IMG/VR virus record: IMGVR_UViG_3300021438_000010
Span: 34,622-98,621 of that record
Length of the DNA stretch: 64,000 nt
Origin: a virus
Direction: 5' to 3' (one strand)
Under the pieces are notes generated by a model. It was not told the origin of the DNA, searched no databases, and worked only from the letters and a program-made list of their open reading frames with translations. The stretch's first letter is position 1; each line of letters starts with the position of its first letter. Position numbers and translations under genes: made by a program. Shown here one piece after another: positions 29,649 to 34,993 of the stretch.

Positions 29649-29951
29649 TTAACGGTTGTGTTCAACGCAGAAAGATATTGGTTCTAATGCAAAGTCAACT
29701 AAATAACCATCGGTATATTCTGCCCATTCATCAATAAAGGATACAATCGTATCTATATCCTCAGTGCAATATCTATAGCAATCATAATCATTTATAGAAT
29801 CATTCCACAATATAATAGAGTCATTCGTGACTTCTATGTTTTTGATATCTTCATTGAAGTGATGTGCGGCTAATAATTGTAGTGGTGAGTATTTAGTGTT
29901 TTTCATCGCACGTACAATATCACTCTCTTTCATTACTAATTGAATTTTCAT
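29649..29951 (-). CDS. hypothetical protein
   Basis: ATG overlaps the TGA of the orphan thyX 3' end. Confidence 0.65.
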
Positions 29952-30043
29952 TTCCAGCCTAAAGCCTCACTAATTGTAGGAAACTGTTCTGTAAAAATTT
30001 GTTTACATTCATTCGCTATGTCCATATGTTCTTTTTGGGTTCC
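29948..30043 (-). pseudogene. thyX: orphaned duplicate 3' end of thyX
   Basis: Translates [31 protein letters not shown], matching the ThyX C-terminus [29 protein letters not shown]. Confidence 0.9.
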
Positions 30044-30620
30044 AATGTTTATCAAAAATTTTTTTAACTAAGTTTAGAAAATCTGTATGAGATAAAGTTC
30101 TTTTAGCATTGTTACAATCAAAACAACAAGGAACAACATTATCATTTAAATAACCCTTAGAGTTATCTATTCTATCTATGCCTGTAAACACATAATCTCC
30201 ACTAGTTTTCCCTTGCCCTTTAATAATTTTATGCGGTTCTCTATCACAATAATAACATTTTGATTTTGTTAAATCTCTAAACTGTTTTTTTGTTAAGTTG
30301 AATTTCAACTTTCTTCTTTTTGCCGATATTTTGTATTGTATTAATAGATTATTAAATGCTGCTTCCCCTTCTTTTAATTGCCAAGGTATATTTTTTGGGC
30401 CTCGTTGCTGCCATAGTTCTGGTTTTTCTTTAAGACATCCACAACTTTTTGTTCGATCTCTTTTTATTATATTATTTCTCATCCATTTTATATTATCACA
30501 TAAATTGCAATGAACTTTAGACCAACCCCTTTTTGTTCCATTTTCATTCTCTGTTTTAGAATCTAGTATCTGTAGATTGTTTATAGTTTCTCCAATTTGT
30601 AATGATTTTTGTCTACCCAT
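30009..30620 (-). CDS. HNH-type homing endonuclease
   Basis: TKSCGC; CYYC...[24 protein letters not shown]. Confidence 0.85.
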
Positions 30621-30661
30621 AATAGTGTCTCCTAGTATATATTACTGATTTCTATACATAG

Positions 30662-31318
30662 TTATATACACCATTCTTTATCTAAACCTCCTAATGCTTC
30701 AGAAATATATGGAAATTGGTCATTAAAGATTTGTTTACACTCTTTGGCTATATCCATATGCTCCTTCTGAGTACCGCTTTTTTCTCTTAGTGCTATATAC
30801 GTAATCCATGATCTAACACTTCCAGAAACATAAAGTCTAGTAGGGGTTGCTAGTGGTAATATAAACCTAGCACATTCTTTAGCTACACCATCTTTAATCA
30901 TACCATCATATATTGACTTTGCTTTAGCAAAATGTTCGCGGATTTTTGTGTTCCACTTAACTATTATTTCATGATCTATATCGTCAATACTATTTTGTCT
31001 ATTTTTAGTATCTTGTCGCCTTAATTCAAATGTGGGTATATCTTCTGTCAATAAAGTTGTGTCAGCGTAACGTTGACTAAACTCTTGAAATGTAAAACTT
31101 CTATGACGCAGGATTTGAGCGGCAAGACCTCTGGTGGTATTAATCTCTACGGTCATAAAACCATGCTCAAATATACTCCAATGTTGATGATCTATACAAT
31201 ATTTCAGTAATTTAGCGTAGTTTTCGTTATTTTGGTTGTTAGGGTTGCTGACTCTAGCACAATAAGCCATTAATTTTTCTGCATCTGGAGTGGTGCTAAC
31301 TAGTTTAACTTGACGCAT
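30662..31318 (-). CDS. thyX: flavin-dependent thymidylate synthase
   Basis: HWSIFE, QILRHRSFTFQEFSQRY, ECARFILP. Confidence 0.96.
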   Translation of the reverse strand: MRQVKLVSTTPDAEKLMAYCARVSNPNNQNNENYAKLLKYCIDHQHWSIFEHGFMTVEINTTRGLAAQILRHRSFTFQEFSQRYADTTLLTEDIPTFELRRQDTKNRQNSIDDIDHEIIVKWNTKIREHFAKAKSIYDGMIKDGVAKECARFILPLATPTRLYVSGSVRSWITYIALREKSGTQKEHMDIAKECKQIFNDQFPYISEALGGLDKEWCI

Positions 31319-34467: not shown

Positions 34468-34993
34468 AAAAAATTCCTCTCTGTATAAAAAATCACACTT
34501 AAATGCTGTAGGATAGATACTACGCATATCTATCTTTCGCAAAACTTTTAAATATCTATTAAATAGTCTATCATTTAGCCATAAAAACATTATTCTACTA
34601 TATCCCTTATTTCTAAAATCTCTTTATGTATTATACCAATTTTTTTATCTTTTATACTGTCAATTTCATTAATTTTATTTAGCATATCAATATATAGTAT
34701 ATTTACCGATAAAGACGAAACTAGTAGAGAAAATAAAAGGGCTACTATAGAATATTTCATATTAAAACTCCTTAAGGTGGGATTTAGTTGGTAGGCTACC
34801 AATCTATACACACACCGGGAGGTTTATCGTTATCCAAAATAGCCCTTCTTTCTTCTCTTAATCCAGCTATTTCTTTACGTTGAGTTTTGATTTCTTGTTT
34901 TAATGACTCTATTGTGATTTTTAAAGATTCTATTTCTTTGTGAAGACTGTTTATATAGTCATCTATATCTGTAGAAATTTTCATATTTAATTA

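Follow-up and report, generated by a model that had tools for sequence, protein, structure and literature searches.

A thyX-associated HNH endonuclease gene in T4-like phages: a probable case of gene-end replacement by one-sided homing

Fungal mitochondria contain gene hybrids generated by mobile endonuclease ORFs (mORFs), as described for atp6 of Allomyces macrogynus and for atp6, atp9, cox2 and nad3 of Glomus (PMC3630166). Among phages, the insertion of mobE in Aeh1 splits nrdA (Friedrich et al. 2007, as cited in PMC8351571 and PMC2988022), and experiments with the T4 td intron established one-sided homing events (Parker et al. 1999, according to the summary in PMC2988022). Here we analyze a stretch of 64,000 nucleotides (nt), positions 34,622 to 98,621 of the IMG/VR virus record IMGVR_UViG_3300021438_000010 (98.6 kb, metagenome-derived); this whole stretch is referred to below as the window. 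In it an HNH-type nuclease gene lies directly behind thyX, and a second copy of the thyX 3' end, an orphan of 31 codons, lies directly behind the nuclease gene. We consider it highly likely that we are dealing with a free-standing homing endonuclease gene that is specialised for thyX of phages and replaces the end of its target gene by one-sided homing. Neither gene-end replacement by a homing gene in a phage nor a thyX-associated homing endonuclease was found in the open-access papers and preprints that were searched.

The features of the locus are the following (ORF, open reading frame; aa, amino acids):

31318-30662, minus strand: thyX, complete, 218 aa, defined by the ORF list and the sequence
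30838-30662, minus strand: imported thyX 3' end of the long-tail class, RLYVSGSVRSWITYIALREKSGTQKEH...EALGGLDKEWCI followed by the stop
30838-30044 (about), minus strand: mobile block as delimited by comparison, made up of 58 codons from the thyX end, the spacer of 41 nt and the nuclease ORF as far as the orphan junction
30661-30621, minus strand: spacer between thyX and the nuclease gene, 41 nt
30620-30009, minus strand: nuclease ORF, 203 aa
30043-29948, minus strand: orphan thyX end, the last 31 codons and TGA of the resident (ancestral) thyX
29951-29649, minus strand: g100, the next gene, 100 aa, no assigned function; its ATG overlaps the orphan TGA (ATGA)
29665-27437, minus strand: rIIA, PHROG 612

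An earlier reading based on the letters and the ORF list (the sequence-only reading) had proposed this arrangement of thyX, HNH gene, 31-codon orphan and ATGA overlap, and all of its coordinates are borne out by the ORF list and the sequence. The thyX product matches both Pfam Thy1 (2.7e-45; 155 bits, cut-off 24.8) and TIGR02170 (1.4e-49; 168.5 bits, cut-off 87.9) over the full length, and is thus predicted to be a full-length flavin-dependent thymidylate synthase. The gene is a single uninterrupted ORF ending at 30662. The nuclease ORF begins 41 nt further on with its own AGGAG and ATG; it lies outside any intron or intein and beside a conserved host gene, as is typical of a free-standing gene. 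Since the rIIA product matches PHROG 612 (1.5e-125) and the record is a virus contig, the genome is that of an uncultured T4-like phage. The overlap of the g100 ATG with the orphan TGA fixes the ancestral gene order as thyX-g100-rIIA. When 12 kb surrounding the locus were compared by Megablast with 50,697 cultured-phage records, there was no match.

The two copies of the thyX end lie on the same strand as direct repeats and are separated by 732 nt, with the functional copy beginning at 30775 and the orphan copy occupying 30043-29948. They are 69% identical over 96 nt. Their 29 aligned codons contain 15 synonymous and 4 non-synonymous differences, and the proportion of differing synonymous sites (pS) is 0.96, that is, synonymous sites are saturated. 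The first five functional codons all differ synonymously from those of the orphan (5/5), just as had been noticed earlier. A search of the window for further copies of the ThyX tail gave one significant match, the orphan (tblastn E 4e-14, blastn E 6e-11; next best 0.67), whose resemblance to that tail is not due to chance.

For comparison, 89 IMG/VR loci (designated here by L and a number) were fetched using ThyX and the 100-aa protein encoded by g100 as queries. In all nuclease-less loci with the thyX-g100-rIIA order (9/9, representing six distinct contigs, L083-L091) a short thyX tail directly abuts g100. These tails end in EALGWK, EALDWK or EALGWQ with the ATGA overlap, or in EALGW or GWNEDQT. 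The ATGA overlap between thyX and g100 is intact in L083-L089, L004/5, L013, L022 and L023. The closest nuclease-less relative is L083, whose rIIA and g100 products are 96% and 93% identical to those of the window. It has no insert, and its thyX, which ends in EALGWK, overlaps the next gene by ATGA just as the orphan does. Positions 2908-2973 of L083 align to both copies in the window, and the orphan is co-linear with the thyX ends of L083, L088 and L089 (88-92% nt identity). Compared with L083, the orphan shows 92% nt identity, a non-synonymous divergence (dN) of 0.014, and 1 non-synonymous and 9 synonymous differences. For the functional end the corresponding values are pS 0.94 and dN 0.11, and it is 52-60% identical in the comparison in which the orphan reaches 92%. 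Because the orphan is close to L083 and the functional end is far from it, these alignments show that the downstream copy is the resident, ancestral one and the upstream copy is foreign. The sequence-only reading had regarded the orphan as the ancestral thyX end and expected HNH-less alleles to end in EALGWK on a g100 homolog; the syntenic loci agree, with exact EALGWK being one of several EALGW-type endings. The locus is therefore polymorphic, with the nuclease gene present in the window and absent from L083, L088 and L089. L030 (present) and L028 (absent) are another such pair.

The extent of the foreign sequence is revealed by L092, a locus recovered by the nuclease search, whose nuclease is 96% identical to that of the window. 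This locus sits in another background: thyX is separated from the upstream gene by other DNA, and an unrelated gene follows downstream (MKHFNITAQVY...). Nucleotide identity between the window and L092 is 70-85% in the body of thyX and 93-100% in the region ~30838-30044; beyond it the sequences are unrelated. The density of mismatches falls at ~30838 and climbs again at 30044, marking the borders of the block. Synonymous divergence (dS) between the two loci is 2.9 for the first 160 thyX codons, 0.16 for the last 58 codons (0.16-0.31 for the functional tail) and 0.23 for the nuclease gene. This is a co-conversion tract with sharp borders, in which adjacent host sequence travels with the nuclease gene. 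The tract reaches ~60 nt upstream of the repeat, and its 58 codons read RLYVSG...ITYIALREKSGTQKEH...GLDKEWCI. It is near-identical to L092 and, in its left half, also to the L084 group, and diverges from the syntenic L083, L088 and L089. Judging from these comparisons, thyX of the window is a hybrid, with the first ~160 codons being a mosaic of the resident type-A lineage and the last 58 imported. The mobile unit proposed in the sequence-only reading (a new thyX end, a promoter and the HNH gene) is upheld by the block shared with L092, but the tract covers ~58 codons rather than 31 and includes ITYIALREKS upstream. After the same junction (...AAACAYTGGAAC...) L092 has an orphan of its own local type, altered by a deletion and a frameshift (GTQKKHMII/EQFPTIGEALGWKNETF) and still overlapping the start of its own downstream gene.

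The body of thyX (31318-30839) is itself mosaic, as its best relative switches every 100-200 nt (L088, L083, L006, then the L084 group). Its dS to L083 is 1.35, above that of the flanks (dS 0.82 for g100; 92-96% nt identity for the upstream gene). Such a mosaic suggests repeated conversion around a hotspot.

The same data bear on two other explanations. One is a local tandem duplication of the thyX 3' end, the copies of which drifted apart and between which the nuclease gene landed by chance; same-strand direct repeats 732 nt apart are what it would produce. We rejected this scenario, to which we give hardly any weight, because divergence between the copies is saturated (pS 0.96) and yet each copy has a closer partner elsewhere (92% nt identity of the orphan to L083, dS 0.16 between the functional end and L092). 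In addition, the foreign tract extends ~60 nt upstream of the repeat, and the same block occurs in another genomic background. The other explanation is that the nuclease has been domesticated as a partner of thyX, perhaps as a regulator or a repair factor, and is inherited vertically, its patchy distribution being due to repeated loss. The tight linkage to thyX across very divergent phages and the strong purifying selection on the nuclease agree with this idea, and T4 I-TevI is an example of such an enzyme that also acts as a repressor (PMC2988022). However, the sharp, tenfold drop of dS is confined to the block, the DNA downstream of the block is unrelated in its two backgrounds, each site has an orphan of its resident allele, and the presence/absence differences are clean. 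Moreover, loss alone would not regenerate pure short tails with the RSAN flank, as seen in L083. We therefore consider domestication improbable.

The nuclease ORF has no match to Pfam or NCBIfam profiles, curated HNH profiles included, even at E 10. It does match PHROG 1035, 3322 and 3118 (endonuclease VII/HNH) with E-values from 5e-16 to 1e-13. The top Foldseek matches of its AlphaFold model (mean predicted local distance difference test score, pLDDT, 85.4) are PacI (3ldy; E 2e-4, probability 1.00) and the Gme HNH nicking endonuclease (4h9d), and PacI is also the best sequence match (phmmer E 0.012). The PHROG matches and the predicted fold are in line with the HNH endonuclease named in the sequence-only reading, and the model indicates a PacI-like enzyme of the HNH fold (beta-beta-alpha-metal). 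In an alignment of 33 homologues the residues C38, C41, C60, C62, C122, Y124, C125, D149, R150, Y157 and N161 are invariant, as are C165, C166, C169, N170 and K173. These include two sets of Cys4 zinc sites, one composed of C122, C125, C165/C166 and C169 and the other of C38, C41, C60 and C62. The general-base His of the H-N-H motif is absent: its place is taken by D149-R150 in 33 of 33 sequences, while Y124 and Y157 are invariant. PacI has the same D-R pair at this place (GVDRSD). Its general base is a tyrosine (PMC4081073). The dN/dS ratio between the window and L092 is 0.037, so the nuclease gene encodes a protein under purifying selection.

The 3' end of the nuclease gene also records the insertion. 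The orphan, read out of frame, supplies the last 11 codons and the stop of this gene, the native stop having been lost at the junction, and the orphan-encoded residues 197-203 are predicted to be disordered. As the native stop is gone and the ORF extends into the orphan by 11 codons, the right-hand junction seems to be illegitimate and not the clean edge of a cassette.

The window contains a second nuclease-type ORF (36025-35447, minus strand, 192 aa, ...ASLDRIDSSIGY...), related to the thyX-associated nuclease at E 2.7e-5. It lacks the C-terminal CxxC (VALIYNYAK) and is therefore probably inactive. It is overlapped by a 132-aa HNH/endonuclease VII-like ORF (35478-35080, minus strand; CCICG...FDHL...CSNCH).

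Wherever the nuclease is at least 41% identical to that of the window (30 loci), its gene lies directly behind thyX (~45 nt), next to thyX alleles that are 43-88% identical to the allele of the window. Long-tail thyX alleles (...LREKxGTQ...EALGG..W.I) make up 14 of the 16 distinct nuclease-bearing alleles, and long-tail ends also occur without a nuclease gene (L003, L009, L020, L028 and others). The proposal that the new thyX end had been specially recoded did not survive this comparison: it is the ordinary end of a natural long-tail allele class that exists in nuclease-less form as well. Similarly, the five synonymous changes in the GTQKE codons, supposed to destroy the target site, are not a general immunity signature and were rejected as such, because other carriers have GGA ACT CAA AAA GAA like non-carriers. 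Carriers do differ consistently from non-carriers in having REK(S/N) instead of RS(A/G)(N/H) just upstream, and K instead of N at codon 198. Going by this distribution, the REK(S/N) flank and codon 198 are better candidates for immunity than the five codons.

The nuclease gene can also be present without an orphan. In phages with the long-tail allele class it is a clean intergenic insert: an insertion of ~600 nt, 10 nt past the thyX stop, distinguishes L030 from L028. Orphans were sought behind the long-tailed thyX of the nuclease-bearing loci L025, L030/31, L035, L099, L106 and L120 and none was found; an orphan is thus not an obligatory part of the element. Nevertheless, orphans occur in at least five lineages. 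None of them begins 5' of the GTQKEH codons, a stretch that hardly varies among ~100 thyX alleles:

Window and L092: orphan of 31 codons, decayed in L092; junction at thyX codon 188
L103: orphan of 27 codons, fused in frame to the nuclease C-terminus; junction at codon 191
L093: orphan KCKQIFNQQFPLISEALGWNETQT followed by the stop (21-27 codons); junction at about codon 196-198
L094-96: 39-nt relic that keeps the last four codons and ATGA; junction at about codon 196-198
L100/L102/L121: last 13 codons, fused in frame; junction at about codon 208

The junctions cluster at thyX codons 188-208. We infer that this spread fits a cut near codons 185-188 and a variable resection of the right end before the illegitimate join.

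In the fused cases (L103:1580-2230, L100:3001-3612, L102:2162-2773 and L121:3001-3612) the nuclease ORF continues into the orphan and uses the old thyX stop, and the proteins end in ...KEHRDVALACAKAIEPVFPLITEFTNE or ...C.EC.DAPSITIE. A third class of thyX tails (L045, L067, L069) has a C-terminal extension, ...EALGWTREDCPECIDPPSITIE, with a CxxC pair. The last 13 codons of this class correspond to the orphan found behind the nuclease gene in L100, L102 and L121.

As the record is metagenome-derived and the junction falls in a conserved stretch, we considered whether reads of two co-occurring strains might have been joined across GTQKEH into an assembly chimera. The order thyX, nuclease, orphan, next gene, however, recurs in independent assemblies from other samples (L092, L093, L094-96, L100/102/121, L103), and the orphans in them are different and partly decayed. 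On the strength of this recurrence we rejected the chimera, whose probability we put close to nil.

Some nuclease-less alleles (L084-87 and L004/5) are hybrids of the two types. They are element-type from ~-120 to +14 relative to the GTQ codon and resident-type from +29; in L084:2790-3004, for example, the sequence is block-like up to GGT ACT CAG AAG GA and resident from ...GCG AAT. The pattern, shared by L084-L087, L004 and L005, would fit either recombination between the repeat copies that deleted the nuclease gene or conversion without acquisition of it.

Homing by gene-end replacement may have a further twist, namely that the orphan has been kept because it is functional, either in translation initiation of the next gene or as part of a 35-aa coupling peptide starting from TTG at 30055. 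The TTG-started ORF does exist (29948-30055), the orphan of the window is intact (1 non-synonymous versus 9 synonymous differences to L083), and in the most eroded relics (L094-96), too, the last four codons have survived and the next ATG is preceded by an AGGTGA box. On the other hand, orphans in relatives have frameshifts and deletions (L092, L094-96), so that the frame is not conserved, and the low dN is equally explained by a recent insertion. A functional orphan is possible, though we lean against it.

The 41-nt spacer of the window (30621-30661) contains an AGGAG ribosome-binding site (RBS) 9 nt before the ATG, a degenerate late-promoter-like sequence, AATATATAC, and a weak hairpin. In the hairpin (30621-30675; z -1.2) the last thyX codons pair with the RBS-ATG stretch. 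Of the 16 relatives shown, 9 have the exact T4 late-promoter consensus TATAAATA in their spacer, and several others have one-mismatch variants. Hairpins of L093, L094 and L099 are stronger (z -2.7 to -2.8), and their loop contains a box of the TATAAATA type, which is degenerate in L094 and exact in the other two. Those of L093 and L094 (2955-3003 in both) are two-tier, with an outer stem formed by the thyX end and the RBS-ATG stretch. In L099 (2950-3003) there is a single long hairpin confined to the spacer, in which the sequence just past the thyX stop pairs with the stretch preceding the ATG. The stem sequences are wholly different between lineages; the layout is kept. A hairpin combined with a late promoter has been described for I-TevI, segB and Aeh1 mobE (PMC2988022), and by this analogy the spacer layout of the relatives matches T4-style translational control. 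As for the window itself, TATAAATA is not enriched there (13 found, 12.7 expected) and has no exact copy in the spacer. Given the degenerate box and the lack of enrichment, the claim that the unit includes a late promoter draws its support from the relatives, and for the window copy (AATATATAC) it is weakly supported.

From these sequences we infer cleavage, its position, the repair pathway and the differences that would give carriers immunity. The following course of events would accommodate the anatomy of the locus, its ancestral state, the sharp-bordered shared block, the recurrent orphans, the clean insert, the hybrids, and the fold and selection of the nuclease. In its home state the nuclease gene would reside ~45 nt behind a long-tailed thyX (...LREKxGTQKEH...EALGG..W.I). 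During mixed infection the nuclease would cut a short-tailed thyX (...LRSxxGTQKEH...EALGWK) near the invariant GTQKEH codons. The left broken end would then invade the donor thyX and copy its last ~58 codons, the spacer and the nuclease gene. Because the downstream genes of donor and recipient are non-homologous, the copied strand would be joined illegitimately to the right broken end, making the homing 'one-sided'. As an outcome, thyX would remain complete with a foreign end, and the nuclease gene would lose its stop and run 11 codons into the old end. The old 31 codons would be stranded as an untethered orphan, still overlapping the start of the next gene. Later the orphan might serve as a right-hand homology arm, so that the block could home into any short-tailed thyX regardless of what lies downstream, as in L092; this would produce the same junction in two backgrounds. 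Afterwards orphans would decay, and recombination between the repeat copies would drop the nuclease gene, leaving hybrid alleles.

Several points weigh against this interpretation. The shared block is ~95.6% identical between the two backgrounds rather than 100%, so the transfers were not very recent. The identical junction in the window and L092 could reflect one origin as well as a precise cut. Since long-tail ends occur without the nuclease gene, the long thyX end is not an exclusive part of the element, and two nuclease-bearing alleles, L101 and L103, are without the REK signature. The late promoter and the hairpin of the window itself are weak. All comparators are metagenome contigs from uncultured phages, and in a search of cultured-phage proteins with the nuclease no match exceeded 33% identity and none adjoined thyX.

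In a more general form, gene-end replacement might be a route by which phage homing genes pass between phages that share only the target gene; we give this extension an even chance. In such a cycle, one-sided illegitimate repair would create a unit of foreign end, nuclease and orphan, with the orphan acting as a portable right arm. With that arm the cassette would become independent of downstream synteny, and repeat-mediated loss would leave hybrid, possibly immune, alleles. If the cycle is indeed general, it would be one of the main forces behind the mosaicism of conserved phage enzymes, and target sites could be predicted from orphan junctions alone. The thyX loci display all of its stages, i.e. 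clean insert, fresh invasion with an intact orphan, decay, in-frame capture, and loss with hybrids. They indicate how selfish nucleases may enter essential genes without introns or inteins and spread between phages sharing one gene. The predicted cut site is at thyX codons around 185-190 (the invariant GTQKEH), and the enzymes point to an uncharacterised PacI-like group of rare-cutting nucleases. There are also practical consequences, as short orphan ends and read-through nuclease ORFs are easily miscalled in annotation and hybrid thyX alleles can mislead thyX-marker phylogenies.

The enzyme itself is most readily compared with PacI (PDB 3LDY), with which it shares the motif G(I/V)DR.D...GY...N...C.xCN..K, the Cys4 zinc sites and an Arg in place of the canonical HNH His. 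In contrast to PacI, to which it is ~20% identical, it carries an additional zinc-ribbon/beta domain at its N-terminus (residues 1-70), which presumably recognises DNA. It also has no methylase partner and is found in a homing rather than a restriction context.

Of the phage systems, the free-standing endonucleases of T4-like phages (SegF, SegG, SegB and MobE; PMC2988022) likewise have their genes beside conserved genes of nucleotide metabolism. As in T4 intronless homing (PMC2988022), there is presence/absence polymorphism, a segment of the adjacent gene is co-converted, and relatives have a late promoter inside an RBS-proximal hairpin. Unlike the T4 cases, in which both flanks are homologous and no duplicate of a gene end arises, the illegitimate right junction at thyX leaves an orphan; the thyX nuclease also belongs to an HNH subgroup different from that of the Mob proteins. 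The one-sided events of the T4 td intron, as summarised in the source cited above, resemble the proposed process in having homology on one side and the other junction at or near the break, formed by microhomology, and in offering a route into ectopic or heterologous sites. However, the td case was a laboratory construct, whereas here the events are deduced from natural sequences and the product would itself be a spreading cassette. Aeh1 mobE, going by the citing papers, provides another parallel, since there too a T4-like phage has an HNH homing gene inside the coding region of an essential gene of nucleotide metabolism, whose function is kept. The difference is that nrdA is left in two pieces that assemble as proteins, while thyX stays in one piece through replacement of its end.

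In layout the thyX element equals the fungal mitochondrial 3'-end-replacement elements (PMC3630166), a comparison already drawn in the sequence-only reading and an apt one. In both, a foreign C-terminal portion has been inserted together with an endonuclease ORF and the gene's own C-terminal part is kept downstream; in both, the native copy is near-identical to that of an element-free relative and the inserted copy is divergent. The thyX element differs in residing in a phage genome rather than an organelle and in having the HNH fold, not LAGLIDADG or GIY-YIG. Its nuclease is a separate ORF with its own RBS past the host stop, whereas several mitochondrial cases are fused in phase, and the same nuclease family also occurs here as a plain intergenic insert. 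In view of the HNH fold and the phage genome, the thyX element is an analogue of the mitochondrial mORFs, not a member of that group.

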